From a virus (lineage: Duplodnaviria; Caudoviricetes), in IMG/VR virus record IMGVR_UViG_2863357390_000001: a stretch of DNA of 64,000 nt, one strand, 5' to 3'. The position numbers were made by a program, and so were the translations under genes. The notes below the pieces were generated by a model that saw only the letters and a program-made list of their open reading frames with translations, was not told the origin of the DNA and ran no database searches. Shown piece by piece: positions 1,491 through 34,774 of this stretch. Within the stretch, counting starts at the first letter, position 1. Each line of letters begins with the position of its first letter.

Positions 1491-2273
1491 GTGATCAAGC
1501 GCTGGCAGCAGGGCTCCGGCCATTGCTACTCCATCGACGGCAAACGCGCCCTCGGGGTCACCACGGTCCTCAAGGCCGTGCCGAAGGAACTCGTCGGCTG
1601 GTCCGCCAGGACCGTCGCGGACTTCGTGGTCGAGCACCCCGGTCTGCTCCAGGACCTGATCCGCGACGGCGGCGGCGACGCCACCCGCGACTTCCTCGCC
1701 GGACTCCCCTTCCAGCAGCGCAACGCCGCCGCCGTACGCGGAACCGCGGTCCACCGCCTGGCAGAGCGGATCATGCACGGCGACGAGGTCGAGGTGCCCG
1801 ACGACCTGGTGCCGTACGTCCGGTCCTACATCGCGTTCTGCGACGACTGGCAGCCGACCGCGCTGCACTCCGAACTGGTGGTCGCCTCCCGCAAGCACGG
1901 CTACGCTGGCACGCTCGACTCGATCCTGCGGATCCCCGTCCAGGGGCTGGGGGTCGTGCAGGTGGACTACAAGACCGGCAACGGCGTGTACGGCGAGGTC
2001 GCACTGCAGACCGCCGCCTACCGCTACGCCGACGTCTACCTCGACGAGGACGGCGTCGAGCAGCCGATGGTCCCGGTCGACGGCGTCTACGTGCTGCACG
2101 TGCGCCCCGAGGGCTACGAGCTGATGCCGCTGGAGGCCGGGCCGGCGACGTTCGACAGGTTCCTGGCAGTGCTGGAGATGTACCGGCAGGTGATCCGACC
2201 GGTACAGCGGGTCCGGCCGCTCGACCGGCTGATCGGCGCCCCGCTGTCGATCGACGCGCCGGCGGTGGCCTGA
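1491..2273 (+). CDS. PD-(D/E)XK phage exonuclease
   Basis: GVTTVL, RGTAVH, YAGTLD, VDYKTG, ALQTAAY motifs; upstream of annealase. Confidence 0.8.
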   Translation: MIKRWQQGSGHCYSIDGKRALGVTTVLKAVPKELVGWSARTVADFVVEHPGLLQDLIRDGGGDATRDFLAGLPFQQRNAAAVRGTAVHRLAERIMHGDEVEVPDDLVPYVRSYIAFCDDWQPTALHSELVVASRKHGYAGTLDSILRIPVQGLGVVQVDYKTGNGVYGEVALQTAAYRYADVYLDEDGVEQPMVPVDGVYVLHVRPEGYELMPLEAGPATFDRFLAVLEMYRQVIRPVQRVRPLDRLIGAPLSIDAPAVA

Positions 2274-17565: not shown

Positions 17566-18198
17566 GTGATCATGACCAAGGTGGTGCTGGACCACCGCAA
17601 CCCGCAGACCGTCGAGGATCTCCGAAACGCCTACCAAATGCACGTCCGCGTCCGGGAGATCGCCGAGGGCCTGCCCGACCCGGACGGCGGCAGGCTGCTG
17701 TGGGGCCTGCACGGCACGACCCTGCTCGTGCAGACCGGAGCGGCGGTGTCCCCGCTCGCCCTGCCCGCCGGGTACGCCGTCTCGGTCCACTCCGCGAACC
17801 TGGCATCCCGCCTCGACCGGATCACCGCCGGTTCGGTCGTGCGGTGGGCGGTCATCGCCAACCCGACCCGGGCACGGGCCAAGGCCACCGCCGTCGGCCC
17901 CGACGGCGTCCCGGTGCGCAAGTCGAGGGGCCAGCCCACCCCGGTCGCCCTGGGCGAACGCAACGAGTGGATCACCCGCAGGCTCGCCCCGGCACTGGAG
18001 ATCACCGCGCTGACCGGCAGGCCGCTGCCCGCCGCCGCCGGCACCCAGATCCGCACGAGGCACCGCGTGCACCACTCCCGGCACCTGTGGCAGGGCACCG
18101 CGACCGTGGCCGACCCGGACGTCCTGCGCGGTCTGGTGTCGTCCGGGATCGGCCACGGCAAGGCGTTCGGCTGCGGCCTGCTGCTGGTGGCGTCGTGA
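17566..18198 (+). CDS. cas6e: Type I-E-like CRISPR RNA endonuclease Cas6e (CasE/Cse3)
   Basis: N-terminal AYQMHVRV, LLVQT, ANPT, and C-terminal Gly-loop GIGHGKAFGCGLL. Confidence 0.88.
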   Translation: MIMTKVVLDHRNPQTVEDLRNAYQMHVRVREIAEGLPDPDGGRLLWGLHGTTLLVQTGAAVSPLALPAGYAVSVHSANLASRLDRITAGSVVRWAVIANPTRARAKATAVGPDGVPVRKSRGQPTPVALGERNEWITRRLAPALEITALTGRPLPAAAGTQIRTRHRVHHSRHLWQGTATVADPDVLRGLVSSGIGHGKAFGCGLLLVAS

Positions 18199-18953
18199 CC
18201 TCGCCGACCCGACTCGTCTGGGGACTGGCCGGACACCCCGAGCCGACCGGGGCCGTCGCGAACCTGTTCGCCGACCGGCCCGGGATGTGCGTGATGTGCG
18301 GGCTGTCCGCCGACCGCACCGCCGACGCCGCCCGTGCGACCGGCGCGAACTTCACCGACCAGTACCTGTACCGCCGGCCGGACTCGGACCGGATCTGCCC
18401 GGCGTGCGTGTGGTGCTGCTCGGGGAAACCCCCGGCGACGCTGCGCATGTGGACGGTCGTCGCCGCGATCGGCGCGACCCTGCCCGACAACCACCCCAAG
18501 TGCTGGCTGCCCAGCCAACCAGGTTTGTGCCTGACCAACCGGGCCGCGCCCGGTGTCGTCGCCGACATCCTCGCCGCCCCACCGGAGGGGGCGTGGCTGG
18601 TCACCGTCGCGACCTCCGGGCAGAAACACGTCCTGCCCTACGGGAAAGTCAACCACGGCGGTCCCGAGTGGACGGTCCGAATGGAGAACACCACGATCAC
18701 CTCCAACGCCCCCACGTGGCGCCGCGTCCTGGGCCACGCCGCCACACTGCGCGCGGCCCGCCACACCGGCGACGACCTCGCCGCCGGGCGGCCCACCCTC
18801 GCCGCGATCCGCACCGCCGACGACCTCGACACGTGGAACCACCACCACGCCGGACTCGCCGACCACGTCGGCTCACCACTACTCGACCTAGCCCTCTGGT
18901 GCCTGACCAAGGAGACGATCCATGACCACGCCCACGCCGCCCCCGTCGCCTGA
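18195..18953 (+). CDS. csf1: Type IV large subunit Csf1 (Cas8-like)
   Basis: CVMCG...NFTD...ICPACVWC zinc motifs; TSGQKHVLP; GTGA overlap with cas6e. Confidence 0.75.
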   Translation: MTSPTRLVWGLAGHPEPTGAVANLFADRPGMCVMCGLSADRTADAARATGANFTDQYLYRRPDSDRICPACVWCCSGKPPATLRMWTVVAAIGATLPDNHPKCWLPSQPGLCLTNRAAPGVVADILAAPPEGAWLVTVATSGQKHVLPYGKVNHGGPEWTVRMENTTITSNAPTWRRVLGHAATLRAARHTGDDLAAGRPTLAAIRTADDLDTWNHHHAGLADHVGSPLLDLALWCLTKETIHDHAHAAPVA

Positions 18954-19281
18954 CGAGCTGATCCAGGCCACCGTCGCCTGGCTCAACGCGCTGCTCGACT
19001 CGGCCTCGGCCGACGTGCTCGGCGTCGCCCACTACTGGGACCGCGCCCAGTCCGCGCTGATCACCGCCGCCACCGCCGACACGGTCGGGGAGGCGGTCAC
19101 CACCGCCGCCCGCAAACTCCAGATCGAGACCACCCAGGCCCGCACCGACACCGCGCTGCTGGAGGCGTGCGCGGTGATCGCCGCCGACTACCCCGCCTGG
19201 CAGGCGAGGGTGGAACGCGAAGCCGTCTACCTCGTCGCCCTCGCCCGTGTCGCCCGCACCGCCCGGAAGGCCACCCGATGA
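18922..19281 (+). CDS. cas11: Type IV-B small subunit (Cas11-like)
   Basis: 119-aa helical protein (YWDR...ARKLQI) between csf1 and csf2. Confidence 0.65.
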   Translation: MTTPTPPPSPDELIQATVAWLNALLDSASADVLGVAHYWDRAQSALITAATADTVGEAVTTAARKLQIETTQARTDTALLEACAVIAADYPAWQARVEREAVYLVALARVARTARKATR

Positions 19282-20168
19282 CCACCACGCTGACGATCCC
19301 GTTCACCGCCACCCTGGTGGCGCCGCTGCACCACGGCGCCGGCACCGCCGGCAACACCAGCCTCATCCGCACCCAGCGGATGGTCCGCCCCGACGGCACC
19401 GTAGCGCAGGTGCCGTTCGTGTCCGGGAACTCGCTGCGCCACGGCCTGCGCGCCGGCCTGGCCTGGCACGCCGTGCGCACCCTGGGCGTCGAGGACGGCG
19501 GCCTGTCCAAGGCCGTGGTCGACCTGCTGTGGTCCGGCGGCGCGATCACCCGCACCGGCTCCCAGACCGACCTCGCGCTGCTGCGCCGGGTCGAGCACCT
19601 GTACCCGCCGCTCGCCCTGATGGGGTACAGCGCCGCGGCCGACATGACCGCGGGCACCCTCGCCGTCGACCAGCTGCACCTGGTCTGCGCCGAGAACGCG
19701 TGGCGGCTGCCCGGGCGGCTGGCCGGCGACCCACGCGCCGCACGGCCGGCGTCGGCGTTCCGCGGCGAGGAATTCGGGACTCGCCACGACGTCGCCGGGA
19801 CCCCGGTCGACCGGTACACCGCGCTGGCCGACGAGCTGGTCCCCACCACCACCCAGATGATCTACGAGCACCAGGTCGTGCTGCCCGGTGCCGCCCTGTA
19901 CGGCGGGCTCGTGCTGACCCCGGCGGCCACCGACGCACAGCTCAGGGTCCTGCTCGTCGCCCTCGACGAGATCATGCCCGCCGACCGGGACGGCGTCCGC
20001 GTCCTGCAACTTGCCGCGAAGCGCGGCGTCGGCTACGGCACCTGCCGGGTCGACCTCGACCTGCCGGACGGCCTGCCCACCCCCGCCGACGCCCGCGCCT
20101 GGTGGGAAGCCCACCTCGTCGAGCACGCCGAGGAGATCACCGCCCTGTGGCAGGAGATCGTCGCGTGA
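19278..20168 (+). CDS. csf2: Type IV backbone Csf2 (Cas7-like)
   Basis: TLVAPLHHG, VPFVSGNSLRHGLR, LLWSGG, PPLALMG, GEEFGTRHD, QMIY, RGVGYG. Confidence 0.88.
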   Translation: MTTTLTIPFTATLVAPLHHGAGTAGNTSLIRTQRMVRPDGTVAQVPFVSGNSLRHGLRAGLAWHAVRTLGVEDGGLSKAVVDLLWSGGAITRTGSQTDLALLRRVEHLYPPLALMGYSAAADMTAGTLAVDQLHLVCAENAWRLPGRLAGDPRAARPASAFRGEEFGTRHDVAGTPVDRYTALADELVPTTTQMIYEHQVVLPGAALYGGLVLTPAATDAQLRVLLVALDEIMPADRDGVRVLQLAAKRGVGYGTCRVDLDLPDGLPTPADARAWWEAHLVEHAEEITALWQEIVA

Positions 20169-20878
20169 GCCCGGTCGTCCCCGCCGGCACCGTGGTCGAC
20201 ACCACCGACGACCCGCGCTGGCAGCCACTGGTCGTCACCGCGACCCTGACCGAGCCGGTCGTCGGCCTGGACTCGCAGCCGCTGTGCCTGGACGGGCCGC
20301 TGGCGTGGTGCGCCGCGCAGCTCGCCCTGGCCGACGAGGCCGGCCTGCCGCCGCTGCGGCACGACTGGGCACCCGACCTCGCCCTGCCCCTGGCCACGTG
20401 GACCGCCGCGCCCTCCCGGCCCGACACCGACTCGCGGCTGCGCGCCGCCGACGGCGAACGGGTGTGGGGGTGGGCGTGCTCGGCCGCGTCGTGGACCGCG
20501 CTCGGCCACACCACCGTCGAGATCCGCCGCCGTCCCCCGGTCGGAGAGATGGCCCGGTTCACCGCGGACGGCAAGCACCACTCCGGGTTGGGCCCGTACA
20601 AGGCCCGGGACACGCCGATGGCCGCGACCTGGGTCGACACGGTCGTCTGGCACGCCCTGGGCGACCCCGACGCCGTCGCCGGGCTGCTCGCCCACCTGGG
20701 ACACCTGGGCCGGGCGACCCGGCACGGCCACGGCCGCATCCAGACGATCACCGTCGAACCCGGCCGGGACCGGGACGCGTGGCGGTCCCGGCCGCTGCCC
20801 GACCCGACCGGCCCGGCCGGGTCGATCCGCGCCCCCTACCACCACCACTCCCGGAGGATGCCGTGCCGCACCCCGTGA
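20165..20878 (+). CDS. csf3: Type IV Csf3 (Cas5-like RAMP)
   Basis: PLVVTATL, LDGPLAW, LPLA, WACS, WHALGD, LGRATRHGHG. Confidence 0.8.
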   Translation: MSPVVPAGTVVDTTDDPRWQPLVVTATLTEPVVGLDSQPLCLDGPLAWCAAQLALADEAGLPPLRHDWAPDLALPLATWTAAPSRPDTDSRLRAADGERVWGWACSAASWTALGHTTVEIRRRPPVGEMARFTADGKHHSGLGPYKARDTPMAATWVDTVVWHALGDPDAVAGLLAHLGHLGRATRHGHGRIQTITVEPGRDRDAWRSRPLPDPTGPAGSIRAPYHHHSRRMPCRTP

Positions 20879-21768
20879 TCGCCTGGGACGGGCAGCCGGT
20901 CGGCGACCGCTACCCGGCGATGGACGTCGTCCCCGGCGTGCTGCCCTGGTCCACCCTGGACCAGGACTCCCGGCCGTGGCAGGACCGCAAGAAGCACTGG
21001 CACGACCTGGGCGTCCGCGACACCACGCCCCGCGACCACGCCGCGGGGATGATGACCACCGGACGGCACGGCGCCCTCTCGGGCGGGGTGTCGCGGTTCG
21101 ACCCGGTGCTCGCCGAGGTCCTGTACCGGTGGTACTGCCCGCCGGGCGGGCGGGTGCTCGACCCGTGCGCGGGCGGACCCGTACGCGGCCTGGTCGCCTC
21201 CCACCTGGGCCTGGAGTACGTCGGCGTCGACCTGGACGCCGACCAGGTCGACGCGAACACCGCCGTCGCGGCGGGTTCGCCGTACCCGTCCCCGGCCTGG
21301 TTCGCCGGGGACGCGCTGACCTACGCCTGGCCGGTCTCCGACGGGGACGCGGACATGGTGCTGACCTGCCCGCCCTACCACGACCGGGAGCGCTACTCCG
21401 ACGACCCCCGCGACCTGTCCACCATGGACTGGCCCGCGTTCCTCGACGCCCACCGCGCCGTGGTCGGCCGGGCCGCCGCGGCGCTGCGCGAGGACCGGTT
21501 CCTCGCGTGGGTGATCTCCGACGTCCGCGACCGGCACGGCCACCTGCGCGGCCTGCCCCGCCACGCCTGGCAGCACCTGGAGGACGCCGGACTGCACGTC
21601 GTCAACGAGCACGTGCTGCGTGCCCCGGTCGGCACCGCGCACAAACGCATGCGCCCGCCGTGGCAGGCGTGCCGCACCGCGACCCGCCGCCACCAGATCG
21701 TCCTGGTCGCGGTCAAGGGCGACCGGCGTGCCGCGACCCGCGCCGTGTCCGGGGGTGGCGGGTGCTGA
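20863..21768 (+). CDS. Amino (N6-A/N4-C) DNA methyltransferase-like protein
   Basis: SRFDPVLAE, VLDPCAGGPVRG (SAM-binding), DMVLTCPPY (catalytic); GGAGG RBS. Confidence 0.8.
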   Translation: MPHPVIAWDGQPVGDRYPAMDVVPGVLPWSTLDQDSRPWQDRKKHWHDLGVRDTTPRDHAAGMMTTGRHGALSGGVSRFDPVLAEVLYRWYCPPGGRVLDPCAGGPVRGLVASHLGLEYVGVDLDADQVDANTAVAAGSPYPSPAWFAGDALTYAWPVSDGDADMVLTCPPYHDRERYSDDPRDLSTMDWPAFLDAHRAVVGRAAAALREDRFLAWVISDVRDRHGHLRGLPRHAWQHLEDAGLHVVNEHVLRAPVGTAHKRMRPPWQACRTATRRHQIVLVAVKGDRRAATRAVSGGGGC

Positions 21769-22535
21769 TCGACTCGACCCGGATCACCGACCGCGACCGC
21801 GACCACTGGGACGCGCTGGAGCGCTACGACCGGATGCTCGCCGCCGACCCGGCCCTGGACCGCAAGGCCGAGAGCGCCGTCGCCGAGGTCCGGGCGTTCC
21901 TGGACGCGGGCGAGGCGTACGTGTCGGTGTCCTGGGGCAAGGACTCCGTCGTCGTCGCCCACCTGGCAGCCCTGGCCGAGCTGACGGTCCGGGTGGTGTG
22001 GGTCCGGTCGGTCCTGTTCGAGACCCCCGAGTGCGACGCGGTGCGCGACGCGTTCCTCGACGCCCACCCGCAGGTGCGCTACGAGGAGATCGCGGTCGAA
22101 ATGCGGAACCCGAAACGCGGCGAACCGGGCTACGACACCCGGCACGCCGACCCGCACGCCGACCACCAGGACGTCCTCCGGGAGACCCTGACCGGCCGGT
22201 GGATCTCCGGGCTGCGCGGCGAGGAGTCCCGGATGCGCCGCATGTCCATCGCCCACCGGGGCCTGTCCACGAAGAACACGTGCCGGCCGATCGGCCGGTG
22301 GGACGCCACGCACGTGTTCGCCTACCTGTGGCGCGAGAAACTCCCGGTGCACCCGGTGTACGCGATGACCGCCGGCGGACACTACGACCGCCGCTGGCTG
22401 CGGGTGCACCCGCTGGGGTCGGCACCCCCGGCCCGGTCCGCCGTGCACGGCCGGGACATGGACTCGTGGGAGGACGCCTACTACGGGGACGTGCTCGCCG
22501 CCGCGAGGCAGGCCCGCGCCCACCTGTGGCGGTGA
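21762..22535 (+). CDS. cysH: CysH/PAPS-reductase-family protein (type IV-B associated)
   Basis: SVSWGKDS PP-loop, GLRGEESRMR, RPIGRWDATHVFAYL. Confidence 0.85.
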   Translation: MLIDSTRITDRDRDHWDALERYDRMLAADPALDRKAESAVAEVRAFLDAGEAYVSVSWGKDSVVVAHLAALAELTVRVVWVRSVLFETPECDAVRDAFLDAHPQVRYEEIAVEMRNPKRGEPGYDTRHADPHADHQDVLRETLTGRWISGLRGEESRMRRMSIAHRGLSTKNTCRPIGRWDATHVFAYLWREKLPVHPVYAMTAGGHYDRRWLRVHPLGSAPPARSAVHGRDMDSWEDAYYGDVLAAARQARAHLWR

Positions 22536-25864: not shown

Positions 25865-26204
25865 CGTCTTCCTCGTCGTCGATGGTGTCGCAGGCGAAGC
25901 AGTCGCACGGGTAGTCGGCGACGGGGCCGCCGACCGCCCGTGCGAACGCGTCGCCCTCCTCGGTGCGGTGTCCGGCCGGGGCGTGGAAGACCCCGACCTG
26001 GGTGTCCGCGGCCCGATAGAGGGCGCGGGCGAGCCCTTCGCCGCGTCGGTCGGATCGGGTCTCGATGTTGGCGATCTCGTGGGTGTCGACGAAGACGTAC
26101 AGCTCGGCGGCGACACCTCGACCGTCGAGGATTTCCCAGATGAGGTACCGGCCCCCGTCTCCGAGGTAGTCGCCGGCGCGTCGGGCGATCGTCTCCGTCA
26201 TCAT
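25857..26204 (-). CDS. GNAT-like acetyltransferase
   Basis: IANIETRSDRRGEGLARALY (motif A), GDAFA. Confidence 0.55.
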   Translation of the reverse strand: MMTETIARRAGDYLGDGGRYLIWEILDGRGVAAELYVFVDTHEIANIETRSDRRGEGLARALYRAADTQVGVFHAPAGHRTEEGDAFARAVGGPVADYPCDCFACDTIDDEEDDD

Positions 26205-26247
26205 GTTGTACACACTACATGACTCATGCGGTGTGCACAACATGATG
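26199..26247 (-). promoter_or_regulatory. Leftward promoter (TTGTGC-N17-TAGTGT) inside a 17-bp inverted repeat
   Basis: CATCATGTTGTACACAC...GTGTGCACAACATGATG (16/17); +1 near ATG 26204. Confidence 0.6.
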
Positions 26248-26345: not shown

Positions 26346-26657
26346 CTACTCGCCGTCGCCGTTCCCGTGGTCGCGGTACCACCGCAGCCACGACCAGGGC
26401 CTCACCCACACACCCCACGGCATCATCGACTCCTCGGTCCCGGTCAACCCCGCGACCCCGACCTCGATCAGCCGCATCCCGCCCAGGACGACCACCACGA
26501 CCGCGGGCGCGACGGCCGGGGCCAGCCACCACGGCCACCGGACGTCCCGGGCCACGTCGGACCACCTGTCCGCCTCGACCGCGACGACCACGCACCACCC
26601 CAGGCCCAAGGCCGCGCTGACGGTTTCCCTGAGCAGCTCCCGGTTCGTCTTCTTCAC
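26346..26657 (-). CDS. Small membrane protein
   Basis: GTGA overlap with the cas8e stop; AGGAG RBS; hydrophobic segments. Confidence 0.5.
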   Translation of the reverse strand: MKKTNRELLRETVSAALGLGWCVVVAVEADRWSDVARDVRWPWWLAPAVAPAVVVVVLGGMRLIEVGVAGLTGTEESMMPWGVWVRPWSWLRWYRDHGNGDGE

Positions 26658-28525
26658 GACGACTCCTCTCCTTCCCGTTCCGTGTCGTCCGGTGCGGCGC
26701 CCGGAGCACGTCGCCCCGGCGTGGTCAGCGCCGCCTCGGGATCCCACCCGTTGATCAGCCGCGACCGCAGCGCCGACACCGAGACCACGCAGCGCTCGTC
26801 ACGCGCCCACTGCGCCTGGGTCTTCTCCTCCCCGAACGCCACCAGCATCGGCGACGGCCTCCCCCCGCCCGCACCGCGTCCGGACCCGGGCTTCCGCCCG
26901 CCGGACCGCCGGGCCCTCGCGCCCGCCGCCGCGGCGGCGAACGCCCGCGCCTGTACCGGGGTGACCTTTCTCGGATAGGGCTTGGTGGGCAGGTCGGTGA
27001 AGTACGCCACGTACCGCTCCAACGCGACCCCGGCCTTCGCACGCATCAACATGCCCGACGAGCCGCCGAACGGCAGCCGGTCCAAGGCCTGCGCGCACAG
27101 CCCGACCAGTCGCCGGCCGTAGTCCAGGCACACCCCGGCCAGCTCCTCGTGGGACGGGTCGGTGTCCAGCGCGGCCAGCCGGCGGGTCGTGTCGGACCAC
27201 AGCCGCTCCAGCGCGTAGGCGTCGGGCGTGAGCCTGTCGCCGAGGGTGACGTGCGGCAGCGCCTCGGCCGCGGCGACGGCCAGGCCGCGCAGCGTGGCCG
27301 CCGTCTGGTGGTCGAGGAACGCCACCACGCGCGCGGTGGGCTCGGCGGCGTGCACCCCGACCGGTCCCAGGTCGACCCGGCCGTTGTGGTCGCCGACGGC
27401 CACGGAGCCGTGCGTGTTGTAGACGGCCTGGGACACCCACACCCGCAGCGGCAGGTCGGCGGGCAGCAGGCCGCGCCGGGCCGCGCCGACGGCGTGCACC
27501 AGTGCGCCGCTGTGCCAGCGGCGGGGGTCGGCGGCGGGCGGGACGTGCAACGGCCGGGTGAGCAGCCACCACCGGGGCTGGTGGCCGTACGGGTCGAACG
27601 CGTCGGGGTCCGCCGTGCCCTGGCCGTCCCGGGAGTCGCGGCACAGCAGGGTCGGGTCCAGGCGGTGGTAGTGGTTCCAGTACCCGGCGACCCGGTCCCC
27701 GTCGTGCCACGCCCACCGGGCCACCCGGCCGTCCCGGTCGGGGAACAGCCTCAGCCGGCGCGCGGGCATCGTGGCCAGCTCCAGCCGCCCGGCCGGGACG
27801 CGGTCGACGCGGATGCCCGCCGGCGGGCCCTCGTCGCGTTCCCACTCCGGGGCGTCGCCCGGCGCGCGGGGCGCGGGCGGCAGGTTGAGCAGCAGCGTGT
27901 CCTTGAGGGTGGCGCCGAGCACGACCAGCCGGACGGTGGCGCCCAGCGGGCCGATCCGGGACCCGTAGACCTTGTTCCCCTTCCCGGCGGGGTCGCCGGG
28001 CGCGGCGGGTTTGATCCCGCCGGTGTCGTAGGCCATGCGGACGAGCAGGTTCCGGGCCGCCTCGCCCGGCTCCCACGGCGGGTGGTCCGCGCCCCGGTAC
28101 AGGCCGGGGTGGAACCACGCCGCGCCCTGCCCGCCCAGCCAAGCGGGGTGCAGCTCGACCGCGCCCCGGTTCGGCTCGGCCAGGTGGGCGCACTGGGCGA
28201 AGGGCCGGTCGGGGTCGTACAGGTCGAACCGGTTCGCCCACCGGTCGAGGTAGTCGGCGATCCGGCCGTGCGGGTCCAGGGTCGGCGCCCGCCAGGCGGC
28301 GTCCCACCCGTCGTCGTCGACGGGTCCGGCGGCGGCCTCGTAGACGGCCAGCAGCAGCCGCAGCAGGACCAGGCCCTCGCCGGACAGGCCGAGGCGGGCG
28401 AGGTTGTGCCGGTGCGCGGACTGCAGCGCCTCGCGCAGTCCCACCTCCCGTTCGCCCTCGCCCCCGGTGGTGTACACCGGGATCCAGGGCCGGGAGAGCA
28501 GGTCGTAGGACGGGGCGCCGGTCAC
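26654..28525 (-). CDS. cas8e: Orphan type I-E large subunit Cas8e (CasA/Cse1) with extra C-terminal DNA-binding-like module
   Basis: YDLLSRPWIPV, LLRLLLA, RFDLYDPDRPFAQ, AYDTGGIK, GDP.GKG, TLKDTLLLNL, PEWER, ARRLRL; tail AFGEEKTQAQWARDERC...RSRLINGWDPEAALTTP. Confidence 0.85.
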   Translation of the reverse strand: MTGAPSYDLLSRPWIPVYTTGGEGEREVGLREALQSAHRHNLARLGLSGEGLVLLRLLLAVYEAAAGPVDDDGWDAAWRAPTLDPHGRIADYLDRWANRFDLYDPDRPFAQCAHLAEPNRGAVELHPAWLGGQGAAWFHPGLYRGADHPPWEPGEAARNLLVRMAYDTGGIKPAAPGDPAGKGNKVYGSRIGPLGATVRLVVLGATLKDTLLLNLPPAPRAPGDAPEWERDEGPPAGIRVDRVPAGRLELATMPARRLRLFPDRDGRVARWAWHDGDRVAGYWNHYHRLDPTLLCRDSRDGQGTADPDAFDPYGHQPRWWLLTRPLHVPPAADPRRWHSGALVHAVGAARRGLLPADLPLRVWVSQAVYNTHGSVAVGDHNGRVDLGPVGVHAAEPTARVVAFLDHQTAATLRGLAVAAAEALPHVTLGDRLTPDAYALERLWSDTTRRLAALDTDPSHEELAGVCLDYGRRLVGLCAQALDRLPFGGSSGMLMRAKAGVALERYVAYFTDLPTKPYPRKVTPVQARAFAAAAAGARARRSGGRKPGSGRGAGGGRPSPMLVAFGEEKTQAQWARDERCVVSVSALRSRLINGWDPEAALTTPGRRAPGAAPDDTEREGEESS

Positions 28526-29238
28526 GCGTCGTCACCGGTGGGCCGGGCGGCGTGGACGGTGTCGTGGCCCTCGGTGGTGACGGTGACCACGAGGATCGGG
28601 TCGTCGCCGTCCCGGCGGACGGTGACGCGCACGGCGTCGTAGGCGGCGGTGTCGTCGAGGTCCCACTCGTCGACGTACCGTCCGGCTAGGCGCAGCGCGG
28701 CGTCCTCGTGGTCCTCCTGCCCGCCGTACTCGTTCTCGCCCAGCATGTCGCGGTCGGATTCGACGCGCTGCCAGTCGCCGTCGATCTCGTGGGTCTCGAT
28801 GGTGTAGGCGAACTTGCACTGGGGGACGCCGTCGACGTCGGTGCGGTGCCACCAGACGGTGCCCTGCTCGGCGCAGTCGGCGAGCTGGCGGACCTCGTAC
28901 TCGTAGCGGGCGTCGGCTTCGGTCCGGTCGTCGGTGTCGGCGTAGTGGGTGCCGTTGTTGTCCATGGTGCGCACGGCCCACCGGACGACCTGCTCGGCGT
29001 GTCCGCGTCGGGAGAGCACGGTGTCGGTGTTCGGGTCGGTCACGGGCGGCTCCTCGACCCAGACGCGGCCGGCGACGTACTGGATGAGGTCGACGCCGAA
29101 GGTGGTCTGGCCGATCTTGTCGGTGCAGTCGGAGGAGCGCTTGACCGATCCCCGGTTGATGGTCTCGACGAGGGCGTCGACGGTCTCTTTCAGGGCTTCG
29201 ACGACGGTGGTCTCGTAGTCGCTGCGGAGGATGCGCAT
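28522..29238 (-). CDS. Acidic hypothetical protein, first gene of the cas8e operon
   Basis: GTGA-coupled to cas8e; directly downstream of a strong promoter. Confidence 0.6.
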   Translation of the reverse strand: MRILRSDYETTVVEALKETVDALVETINRGSVKRSSDCTDKIGQTTFGVDLIQYVAGRVWVEEPPVTDPNTDTVLSRRGHAEQVVRWAVRTMDNNGTHYADTDDRTEADARYEYEVRQLADCAEQGTVWWHRTDVDGVPQCKFAYTIETHEIDGDWQRVESDRDMLGENEYGGQEDHEDAALRLAGRYVDEWDLDDTAAYDAVRVTVRRDGDDPILVVTVTTEGHDTVHAARPTGDDA

Positions 29239-29268
29239 CGGGGCTCCGGTGGTGTGGCGGTCGGTTGT

Positions 29269-29348
29269 GTGCCACCACCGTAGCCAAACCAACAAAACAT
29301 AGTCAACTAATTGCGGAGGTTTTGTTGTTTGAACTAGGGTGGTGGCAC
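29269..29348. promoter_or_regulatory. AT-rich divergent promoters within a 30-bp imperfect inverted repeat
   Basis: Arms match 25/30 around a 20-nt spacer; - TTGACT-N18-TACGGT; + TTGCGG-N18-TAGGGT. Confidence 0.7.
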
Positions 29349-32761: not shown

Positions 32762-34774
32762 TCATGCCGGGACCAACTCGCGCACGAACCTGAACCCGGT
32801 GTCGGTGCGCTCCAGTTGCCCGGTGTCCACACGGCCGTTCAGCGACTTGTAGACCCACGCCGGGGACCGGACCGCCTTTCGGGCCACGTCGACCAAATCC
32901 CCGGCCCGGATCTCCTCCACGCCCTGGGCCTGGAGTTCGAGCAGCCGCTGCTCGAACAGCGCGGCGGCCTCGGCGGGCGTGGCTTTGGGTCCGGCGGGTC
33001 GCTCCCAGTCGCCGTCCGTGCCGCCGATGGGCAGCGGGTCGTCGATGCCCGGCTGCACGGAAGGGTCCGGGTCGTCGGCACCGGGCCGCCACGGCTCCTC
33101 GAAGTCGTCGCCGAGCAGATCCCGCACCGGCGCCTCGTCGTCTTCGTCGTCCACGACCGGCACCGGCACCGGGGTGGGCGGCACAACGGGTGCTGCGGGT
33201 GCGCTCGGGGCCGCGCCGACCATGCTCTCGACCGGAACCCGGGTGGTGTACAGCTCGCCGAACGCCGCCGTGGTCATCGCGTCCAAATCGTCGCCGTGCA
33301 GCCGTGCCCAGCGGGCCAGCATCCGGAGCTGGTCGTCGGAGATCCCCAGGGTCCGGCCAGGGGTGGTCCACAGCGCCCGGTCGACGCCGGGGGCGACCAG
33401 GTAGCAGCACGCGGGCCGTTCGTTCTTCCACCGTGACGGGTCGGCACCGGCCTCCAGGACCTCGTCGGGCATGGCGAACGCGGCGTCTTCCTGCTCGGCG
33501 ACGCCGAAGCAGAGCACCGCGCCGAACTGCGCGCGCGCGGCCACGTCGAGCGACACGTACGAGGGCCTCTGCATGGACAAGGTGAACTCGACGCCCACCG
33601 ACCGGATGCGCTCCATGGACTGGACGAACGCCTTGTCGCCCAGGAACAGGCCGGATCCCTCCTCGATGTGCACGCGCAGCCGGGGAATGCCGCACCCGGG
33701 CTCCCAGTTCTTCAGGCCGCGGCGGCCGAGGTAGTCGGCCCGCGCCGGTACGACCTTGTCCCGCAGAGCCCGCATCAGCGCGTGGGCCTCGGCCTCGGTG
33801 CGGATGACCCACCGGATCCCCTCGGCCAGCGGCCCCAGGGACTGCGCGCCCTTCACCGTGTCGACGTAGATCGTGTAGGTGTCCCGGCGGGTGAACTCCT
33901 CGGCGAAGATCACGTAGGCGCCGAAGGTCTTGCCCGCACCGGTCATTCCCATGATCAGGAGCGCGGTCTCGCCCCATCCGGGTCGGTGCAACGGCAGCAT
34001 CATCGGCCGCCCGTCCTCGTACACCCCGATCCGGTACGGCTGCGCCGGCGTGCCGCCCAGCGCGGACGGTTCGGTGTACGGGGTGGACTCGCGCAGCATG
34101 TCCCGGCGGACCAGGGTCAGCTCGGCCTGCGACGAGTCGTCCGGGGACGGGGTGATGCGCGCACCGCCCGGCGGGAGCCGGAGCACCGACTCGAGCTTGG
34201 ACAGGGAGCGCTGGGCGTCGTCGACGGTCTCGCCGCCCTCCAGCGACAGCGGCCCGGCCAGCCGGTCCTCCGACTTCTCCTTCGGCGTGTAGGCCGAGCC
34301 CTCGAGCGCACCGCCGACCTTGGTGGACACCTCGTCCCACAGCGACCGGCGGGCGCCCTCGGTCGCGTCCTGGGTGCGGCGCAGCACCCGGCGTACGATC
34401 CACGCCCCGGTCACCGACGCCCCCGCCCACCCCCACACGCCCAGCAGCGGCTGCGACACCGGCCCGGCCATCACCGCGGCGATCTGGTGGGCGCCGACCA
34501 GGATCGGCGTGCCCAGCGCGAACACCCGGCCCAGCATGTTGCGCCGTCGGTCCAGGTGGTGGACCAGGACGACCATGCCCGCGGTCGTGGCCCCGATGCC
34601 CAGGGTCATCCACGGCAGCGACTCCGGCGTGGCCAGTCCCCACAGGGTGCACGACAACGCGAAGTCGCCGGCCAGTCCGGCGACGGGCGCGGCGGCCACG
34701 GCCAGGCGGGACGCGGCGTGCTTGGCCACCCGGCCCCCGGCGTCCTTCGACGCTCTGATCAGCGGGTTAACCAC
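32762..34774 (-). CDS. traB: TraB conjugative DNA translocase (FtsK/SpoIIIE family)
   Basis: N-terminal TM helices, GMTGAGKT Walker A, RVHIEE Walker B, SMQRPS, C-terminal winged helix (RSPAWVYKSL). Confidence 0.88.
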   Translation of the reverse strand: MVNPLIRASKDAGGRVAKHAASRLAVAAAPVAGLAGDFALSCTLWGLATPESLPWMTLGIGATTAGMVVLVHHLDRRRNMLGRVFALGTPILVGAHQIAAVMAGPVSQPLLGVWGWAGASVTGAWIVRRVLRRTQDATEGARRSLWDEVSTKVGGALEGSAYTPKEKSEDRLAGPLSLEGGETVDDAQRSLSKLESVLRLPPGGARITPSPDDSSQAELTLVRRDMLRESTPYTEPSALGGTPAQPYRIGVYEDGRPMMLPLHRPGWGETALLIMGMTGAGKTFGAYVIFAEEFTRRDTYTIYVDTVKGAQSLGPLAEGIRWVIRTEAEAHALMRALRDKVVPARADYLGRRGLKNWEPGCGIPRLRVHIEEGSGLFLGDKAFVQSMERIRSVGVEFTLSMQRPSYVSLDVAARAQFGAVLCFGVAEQEDAAFAMPDEVLEAGADPSRWKNERPACCYLVAPGVDRALWTTPGRTLGISDDQLRMLARWARLHGDDLDAMTTAAFGELYTTRVPVESMVGAAPSAPAAPVVPPTPVPVPVVDDEDDEAPVRDLLGDDFEEPWRPGADDPDPSVQPGIDDPLPIGGTDGDWERPAGPKATPAEAAALFEQRLLELQAQGVEEIRAGDLVDVARKAVRSPAWVYKSLNGRVDTGQLERTDTGFRFVRELVPA

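Follow-up and report, generated by a model that had tools for sequence, protein, structure and literature searches.

Why does a prophage encode a lone Cas8e, the large subunit of the type I-E Cascade of CRISPR systems, and why does this protein end in a DNA-binding-type tail? The question is raised by a stretch of 64,000 nucleotides (IMG/VR record IMGVR_UViG_2863357390_000001), called the window here, which corresponds to G000:C1:1091118-1155117 and is part of a 7.35-Mb actinomycete chromosome with a G+C content of about 72%. By a genus tally, the chromosome belongs to one genus with an Actinosynnema assembly. The window is prophage DNA: it has genes for the terminase large subunit, the portal and the major head protein, and also for an exonuclease and a DNA methyltransferase. 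A megablast search with 15 kb of it returned no match among phage records. The protein, which we call Cas8e-tail, is preceded by the product of a gene named X, and the coordinates of both genes and of the other features are collected in Table 1. We tentatively favour the reading that X and Cas8e-tail may form a self-regulated, Cas-derived anti-CRISPR (Acr) cassette directed against the type I-E systems of the host, in which the phage Cas8e would act as a faulty large subunit of Cascade.

The identity of the protein body was established by profile searches and structural modelling. The 623-residue product was matched by the Pfam family CRISPR_Cse1 (PF09481) over residues 8-305 (E-value 1.6e-47, 163 bits against a cut-off of 24.7), by TIGR02547 (7e-27, 94.4 bits against a cut-off of 70.05) and by the PADLOC Cas8e model (2e-47). 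The AlphaFold model of Cas8e-tail (AF2, 28 homologues) was confident over the whole length, with a predicted local distance difference test score (pLDDT) of 85.5 and a predicted template modelling score (pTM) of 0.81, and consisted of an N-domain (residues 1-388), a four-helix bundle (residues 389-508), a linker helix, a disordered basic Gly-rich stretch and a confident tail. Foldseek comparison with the solved Cse1 structures aligned about 555 columns (E-value 4e-25 for 4h3t, TM score 0.70-0.72 for 3wvo), and the matches to 4h3t, 3wvo, 4an8, 5u0a and 4qyz had E-values from 1e-12 to 4e-25 and spanned about 515-580 alignment columns. Because the model contains both domains and the alignment to solved Cse1 runs over some 555 columns, the prophage protein has a whole two-domain Cas8e of about 510 residues and not an N-terminal fragment. 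The first-pass annotation of this DNA had placed Cas8e motifs in the N-terminal 370 residues or so; the profiles bear out the identity, whereas the extent had to be enlarged to about 510 residues, helical bundle included, on the evidence of AlphaFold and Foldseek.

Functional residues were compared by aligning the subfamily described below to E. coli CasA and to 18 canonical Cas8e sequences; the alignment with the E. coli protein is at about 17% identity. Most of the residues conserved in canonical Cas8e N-domains are retained in the subfamily, among them W14, R56, W74, Q111, the G-I-K loop, LLLNL and P-x-W, together with the motifs G-x-x-D-x-x-T-W-x-x-R-R and G-D. Cas8e reads the protospacer-adjacent motif (PAM) through three elements, namely a Gly loop, a Lys finger and a Gln wedge (PMC6546366). 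At this low level of identity, a Gly-loop-like G-G-I-K motif appears to be retained in the prophage Cas8e, the Lys that 94% of canonical sequences carry in the E. coli K268 column is missing in all 28 subfamily members, and the hairpin aligned to the E. coli wedge (N-N-Q-A-S) is kept with its tip changed from Q-Q to H-x. The E. coli residue numbers assigned to the PAM elements, such as K268, are those that we take to apply from the structure. Compared with the canonical Cas8e/Cse1 proteins of T. fusca (3wvo), A. ferrooxidans (4h3t) and E. coli (4qyz/5h9e), the prophage protein shares the profiles, the two-domain fold and the G-I-K loop, LLLNL and W-x-R-R motifs, but it belongs to no cas operon, lacks the K268-aligned Lys, has the H-x tip in place of QQ, bears an extra linker and tail and has diverged in the sequence of its C-terminal half.

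The neighbours of the Cas8e-tail gene are X and a gene for a small membrane protein, and at seven other loci the gene likewise stands outside any cas operon. It had been stated that the window holds no cas3, cas7e, cas5e or cas11e; for two of these genes the statement agrees with our searches, as all Cas7e and cas3-core matches above the family cut-offs in the genome fell outside the window, while cas5e and cas11e were not searched by family there.

Database searches assigned the protein to a separate subfamily that comprises 28 clusters; its members are 36-48% identical to the query and share dozens of invariant residues. Most rows cover 96-99% of the query and the tail-less ones 48-69%, while all Cas8e outside the subfamily match only about its first 42%. 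The tail, in which C, V, R and P are invariant and one G is nearly so, is present in 23 of the 28 clusters. In a maximum likelihood tree rooted on the 18 canonical Cas8e sequences, including the two of the host, the 28 rows formed a single clade with a Shimodaira-Hasegawa-like approximate likelihood-ratio test (SH-aLRT) value of 99; the 23 tail-bearing members grouped together (80), with the five tail-less ones as their sister (97). Monophyly, intact open reading frames (ORFs) and dozens of invariant residues therefore exclude a decaying remnant. That the gene could be such a functionless relic of a degraded I-E locus, evolving without constraint, had been raised as a possibility, and the orphan state of Cas8e-tail and the fact that the canonical profile covers only its first 277 of 450 positions would fit it. 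This explanation is contradicted by the intact ORF, by a model confident over the whole length, by full-length conservation in 28 clusters, by the conserved partner, promoter and tail and by translational coupling, and we consider it scarcely credible.

No Cas8e homologue was detected among 50,697 phage records. Ten Streptomyces plasmids carry Cse1 genes with N-domain similarity at the level of the subfamily, covering 35-64% of the query, none of them reaching the tail and all annotated as plain CasA where the feature is listed. The words 'orphan' and 'anti-CRISPR' do not occur in a 2025 review of CRISPR-Cas in actinomycetes, and we found no earlier description of the Cas8e-tail family in the literature or in phage records.

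Eight tail-bearing loci from four named genera were examined, namely the window, L009, L010, L012, L013, L014, L015 and L017. Their contexts are mobile or accessory and include a prophage in Actinosynnema, a locus that adjoins genes for a TraG-like coupling protein and a DNA ligase, and one with an AcrVA2-like gene within about 8 kb. Only seven of the 99 window genes have a relative in the 100 kb around the Actinosynnema copy, and the module therefore moves as a cassette. At L014 (7162-8595; Streptomyces xiamenensis) an orphan Cas8c (Cas_Csd1, 9e-17) is encoded two genes upstream of X and Cas8e-tail, and its C-terminus bears two Cys/His-rich Zn-ribbon-like motifs, which we take to recall actinophage HNH endonucleases. 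Nuclease-type DNA-binding appendages thus appear to recur on orphan large subunits, on Cas8e in the present case and on Cas8c, with its Zn-ribbon-like Cys/His motifs, in another genome.

The tail-less sister group gives a view of the ancestry of the module. Its member P0029, from a Streptomyces alboflavus plasmid (L019:6001-10726), is encoded in a cas8e-cse2-cas7e-cas5e-cas6e operon (Cse2 5.6e-10). Neither cas3 nor cas1 nor cas2 occurs within 6 kb of it, and a PAPS-reductase/DUF3440 gene is found nearby. In a related Kitasatospora element (L020:1466-7536), the PAPS-reductase gene is retained at 70% identity and Cas8e stands alone, the other Cascade genes being gone. The lineage includes, therefore, a Cascade large subunit without cas3 nearby, besides stand-alone members. 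L019 and L020 can also be seen as a counterpart, derived from I-E, of type IV-B and its cysH-like gene. Our protein is linked to nuclease-free Cascades, such as those of type IV-B and L019, through its tail-less sister in L019, which is associated with a mobile element and has a PAPS-reductase-family neighbour; it differs from the L019 Cascade in having no other subunits alongside and in having gained the tail, X and the operator.

This ancestry bears on an alternative explanation, according to which the orphan Cas8e would combine with host Cas5e, Cas7e, Cas11 and CRISPR RNAs (crRNAs) into a nuclease-free, DNA-binding Cascade in the service of the element. Much as type IV systems or CRISPR-associated transposons do, it could for instance silence competitors or lytic genes of the element itself, with the tail adding DNA affinity or regulation. 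A sister member within cas8e-cse2-cas7-cas5-cas6e and free of cas3, cas1 and cas2 over 6 kb, the resemblance of the L019 PAPS-reductase/DUF3440 neighbour to the association of IV-B with cysH, the retention of the complete fold together with Gly-loop motif and wedge hairpin, and a host that provides many prophage-matching guides are all consistent with this idea, but the protein lacks the Lys finger and has a changed wedge tip, no effector or cysH-like gene accompanies the tail-bearing module, and one carrier genome (G003) shows no I-E system. We regard it as rather unlikely. As replacement of the host large subunit would cause inhibition anyway, it overlaps with the anti-CRISPR cassette that we favour.

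Cas8e-tail is the second of three genes that are translationally coupled by 4-nt overlaps, with X ahead of it, in agreement with the position in the operon assigned to it by the first-pass annotation. The stop codon of X overlaps the Cas8e start (GTGA). In seven of the eight tail-bearing loci, the gene immediately before Cas8e-tail encodes an X homologue, often with a 4-nt stop/start overlap, and the six homologues measured have isoelectric points (pI) of 4.05-4.54. The third gene, coding for the 103-residue hydrophobic protein, is absent from the other X and Cas8e-tail modules.

The AF2 model of X shows a two-domain alpha/beta protein (pLDDT 76.8), for which Foldseek found no match among solved structures at E <= 0.001, the best VIA hit having a Z score of 6.4 (WGR domain). 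An Acr fold was considered for X and set aside, as AcrIF9 and a chain of a cas/anti-cas complex reached a Z score of only 5.4, inside the noise band. A structural relative was found in an uncharacterised protein of Streptomyces phage Gilgamesh (BFVD, E-value 3.5e-4); the feature search of the atlas with X gave nothing usable, and tblastn of X against phages gave no match. The N-domain of X defines a family of 123 representative clusters, whose remoter members adjoin other unknown genes and not Cas8e; a search with a four-row X alignment among species representatives returned three loci only. The acidic partner thus belongs to a widespread family with no known function.

The properties of X invite the explanation that another gene of the prophage inhibits the I-E system, be it X, a crRNA sponge made of Cas6e and the type IV-B complex, or an unrecognised small Acr, and that Cas8e-tail is mainly a DNA-binding regulator of its own operon, whose Cas8e body would have been exapted, with no relation to Cascade, to serve as a scaffold or sensor. 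X shares an acidic character with DNA-mimic Acrs and is part of a wider family carried by mobile genetic elements (123 clusters), with some members not beside Cas8e; the IV-B sponge hypothesis has been published (PMC8175902), and both tail and operator are conserved. On the other hand, a Cas8e fold of about 510 residues with core residues kept over deep divergence would be odd for a plain repressor, X has no significant structural match among Acrs (best Z score 5.4, AcrIF9, at noise level), and the X and Cas8e-tail module occurs without IV-B. This explanation, too, seems rather unlikely to us.

The segment joining the C-terminal tail to the Cas8e body is basic and Gly-rich, as had been noted, and the tail itself (about residues 558-607, 50 residues) is a confident beta-hairpin with three helices in the AlphaFold model, where this fold spans residues 560-601. 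The whole protein matched no HNH family in Pfam, NCBIfam or PADLOC, in line with the earlier remark that the tail lacks an HNH catalytic core. Its assignment to the type of tail found on phage HNH endonucleases is supported by a weak PHROG match to phrog_3377 'HNH endonuclease' (E-value 0.004), by atlas structure matches to HNH_3, HNH and LAGLIDADG endonuclease clusters (TM score by query 0.79-0.89), by P0125, an unrelated protein of 304 residues whose C-terminus carries this tail as well, and by a stretch of Rhodococcus phage Peregrin gene 61 that is 49% identical to it. On these four lines, the tail is probably kin to the DNA-binding modules of homing endonucleases. Its feature-based neighbours in the atlas were helix-turn-helix (HTH) families such as HTH_psq and NUMOD1, and its profile retrieved nothing meaningful from the PDB sequences. 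P0125 was also considered as an HNH_3 enzyme; Pfam gave no HNH match for it, and it is usable only as a protein sharing the tail. Among P0011, P0016, P0022 and P0021 (alignment A1), three have a further C-terminal extension of about 130 residues with Cys-rich ribbons and an HTH-like stretch, and one bears the tail twice.

Upstream of the operon, an inverted repeat is formed by two arms of 30 nt (29269-29298 and 29319-29348), 83% complementary and 20 nt apart. The promoter TTGACT-N18-TACGGT reads on the minus strand as had been claimed, with TTGACT in the loop (29306-29301), an 18-nt spacer and the -10-like TACGGT in the downstream arm (29282-29277); a mirror TAGGGT faces the divergent gene on the plus strand. 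A generic scan for sigma-70 promoters made no call here. Related AT-rich inverted repeats flank an invariant TTGAC ahead of the module at L009, L010, L012 and L017, which belong to other genera, and the downstream arm in the module operators is close to GTTTnGATAGTTnGG. The mean column identity of the operator alignment was 62%, compared with 36-50% identity between the proteins, and different palindromes occupy the corresponding place at L013 and L014. The architecture of promoter and inverted repeat is thus inherited with the module across genera.

No other copy of the operator repeat of the window was found in the 7.35-Mb genome. Since it occurs nowhere else, the repeat is a private operator that offers no route to the host cas promoters, and a role of the tail as a repressor of these promoters was ruled out. 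Apart from the tail, no DNA-binding module can be recognised that every cassette encodes, and on the simplest reading the tail would repress transcription of its own operon through the inverted repeat. AcrIIA13-15 and AcrIF24 are examples of Acrs with a built-in HTH autorepressor. A further case is AcrIIC9, and autoregulation by HTH-bearing Acrs has been described together with 358 orphan viral cas genes (bioRxiv 10.1101/2023.06.24.545427). The prophage cassette resembles HTH autorepressor Acrs such as AcrIIA1 and the promoters regulated by anti-CRISPR-associated (Aca) proteins in having an inverted repeat over the promoter and a DNA-binding module in the cassette, but it differs from the Aca HTH families in that this module is a C-terminal beta-hairpin with three helices, of homing-endonuclease type, and its binding to the repeat is putative.

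For an anti-I-E function encoded at some place on the prophage, the best support from context came from the self-targeting spacers of the host. Two uninterrupted I-E loci are present in the host chromosome, the first with cas3, cas8e, cas7, cas5, cas6e and cas1 beside an array and the second with cas3, cas8e, cse2, cas7, cas5 and cas6e, and both are apparently intact. A third system, cas3-cas5-cas8c-cas7-cas4-cas1, lies at 839-846 kb of the genome. Seven of the host arrays have I-E-type repeats and three have repeats of a second type (37-38 nt), which is found beside this third system. The resident prophage is matched, at 0-3 mismatches, by 15 I-E spacers drawn from five arrays; seven of these matches are perfect, and 5'-AA precedes 14 of the 15 protospacers, of which 13 fall inside the window and two just past its right end (genome 1155627 and 1167065). 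A spacer of the second type also matches the prophage, at window 1552-1586 with one mismatch. A living lysogen with 15 self-targeting spacers implies that I-E interference must be blocked or silent. Two more I-E spacers match the genome outside the window, at 6846656-6846685 and 6850157-6850190, one of them perfectly and with an AA PAM, and this chromosomal region is probably another resident mobile element.

According to the cassette reading, the action on the host would proceed as follows. The domain of Cas8e that docks on Cas5e and on the crRNA 5' handle is kept by the phage protein in its fold and in most of its conserved core residues, and the phage protein may on this ground be able to replace the large subunit of the host within Cascade. 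The large subunit of Cascade is known to be loosely bound. With the conserved PAM-reading Lys finger apparently lost, the wedge tip altered and a descent shared with a Cascade operon that has no cas3 in its vicinity, the hybrid Cascade would be expected to be defective in target licensing, in Cas3 recruitment or in both. The tail would bind the inverted repeat around the -35 box of its own operon as a built-in Aca-like autorepressor, and the acidic X may be a second inhibitor or a cofactor. The first-pass annotation had proposed a decoy that acts on host Cascade or, in the alternative, a subunit of a phage type IV-B complex. The former is the better supported of the two, as the gene is a constrained orphan on a mobile genetic element in a host with two I-E loci and 15 matching spacers, while the IV-B part found no support; the helical bundle, the partner X, the conservation of the promoter across genera, the Cas3-less sister Cascade and the self-targeting spacers were not part of that proposal. 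A more specific version holds that the phage Cas8e makes of host Cascade a Cas3-blind, guide-directed DNA binder, with the 15 spacers serving as repressors of the prophage or of superinfecting relatives and the autoregulation by the tail setting the dose of the Cas8e swap; we judge this combination improbable.

Several observations weigh against the cassette reading. Given a sister-clade member that belongs to a Cascade, the orphans may keep a non-inhibitory, guide-dependent function together with host subunits. The same prophage carries Cas6e, the IV-B module and many unknown small genes, and self-targeting implies some inhibitor or silent cas genes without singling out the Cas8e operon. The PAM elements were placed through the E. 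coli alignment, at about 17% identity, and Cas8e-tail is much larger than typical Acrs. The self-targeting did not recur in two other carrier genomes: G001 and G002 have I-E arrays with no spacer against the regions of about 100 kb and 22 kb around their modules. G003, which carries the module, gave no Cas7e match. In favour of the cassette reading, Cas7e is present in three of the four module-carrying genomes. Strong module matches, three in 401 genomes, are too few for a test of co-occurrence with I-E.

Known Cas-derived anti-CRISPRs consist so far of Listeria type I-B pieces and Cas3 homologues. To our knowledge, no inhibitor is built from a whole Cas8e, and none was found in our searches of the literature and phage records. 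In Listeria, AcrIB3, a Cas5 homologue, and AcrIB4, a homologue of the Cas8b C-terminal domain, act as faulty Cascade subunits (bioRxiv 10.1101/2023.06.24.545427). Cas8e-tail is like AcrIB3 and AcrIB4 in being a Cas homologue outside cas loci, on a mobile element, in a clade of its own and in a host with the cognate type I system, as well as in its proposed incorporation into a defective Cascade. The Listeria study, by Katz et al., was reportedly published in Nature in 2024. Our case concerns type I-E and not I-B, in another phylum, and a large subunit kept whole at about 510 residues, in contrast with the C-terminal piece of 90 residues that makes up AcrIB4; it further differs from both Listeria proteins in its homing-endonuclease-type tail, its acidic partner gene, its conserved operator and an action predicted from sequence. 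If the reading is correct, the cassette would represent a natural off-switch, or a 'Cas3-blind' converter, for type I-E Cascade and would explain the survival of the lysogen despite 15 self-targeting spacers. It would also suggest how a plasmid Cascade operon without cas3 can shed its subunits and become a weapon against the ancestral system.

Finally, we considered the type IV-B operon on the same prophage. The module of Cas6e and IV-B genes about 4 kb from Cas8e is real, and a DNA methyltransferase gene is inserted in it ahead of the cysH-like gene. No CRISPR array was found in the window. The possibility that Cas8e-tail is the dedicated PAM-reading or large subunit of this complex, as the first-pass annotation had also suggested, is prompted by the distance of about 4 kb to cas6e-csf1-cas11-csf2-csf3-MTase-cysH (MTase, methyltransferase) and by the I-E-type Cas6e that heads it. 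However, the operon of X and Cas8e-tail runs on the other strand under a separate promoter, and the IV-B operon already encodes the large subunit Csf1. Moreover, Csf2, found with an E-value of 2.7e-85 in the own genome G000 as positive control, had no match in G001-G003, all of which carry X and Cas8e-tail, and no csf genes occur within 10 kb in the seven other loci. Because the three other module-bearing genomes are without type IV-B, this explanation fails as an account of the module, and we hold it to be very improbable. The Cas6e/IV-B module may be a candidate crRNA processor or sponge in its own right, given the many I-E arrays of the host; crRNA sponging has been proposed for type IV-B (PMC8175902).

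Table 1. Features of the prophage window discussed in the text (window coordinates; aa, amino acids).
Feature	Position	Strand	Remarks
AT-rich promoter/operator with 30-nt inverted repeat	29269..29348	.	encloses the -35 box
Gene X, first of operon	28522..29238	-	238 aa; pI 4.4; two alpha/beta domains; no known family
Cas8e/Cse1 + linker + tail ORF	26654-28525	-	623 aa, intact
Cas8e/Cse1 body, N-domain aa 1-388 and C-terminal four-helix bundle to aa 510	26996..28525	-	predicted from profiles and AlphaFold model
Basic Gly/Arg-rich flexible linker, aa 511-556	26858..26995	-	pI 12; part helical, part disordered
C-terminal DNA-binding-type tail, aa 558-607	26705..26854	-	beta-hairpin and three short helices
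Third coupled gene, hydrophobic protein	26346..26657	-	103 aa; specific to this locus
Type IV-B operon cas6e-csf1-cas11-csf2-csf3-MTase-cysH	17566-22535	+	I-E-type Cas6e at head
I-E protospacers, 33-34 nt	712, 4210, 4347, 9163, 14179, 22764, 25461		spacer matches
I-E protospacers, 33-34 nt (continued)	36287, 38132, 38970, 45562, 55935, 60982		spacer matches

Two further features of the window were observed. A protein of 670 residues encoded at 32762-34774 on the minus strand matched phrog_24831 (unknown function, 2e-103) and, faintly, FtsK/SpoIIIE (9e-4), with no match in Pfam. A second, unrelated palindrome, nearly perfect, is found at 26199-26247, with arms of 24 nt that are 88% complementary and 1 nt apart, and sits in the gap after the Cas8e operon, ahead of the next leftward genes.

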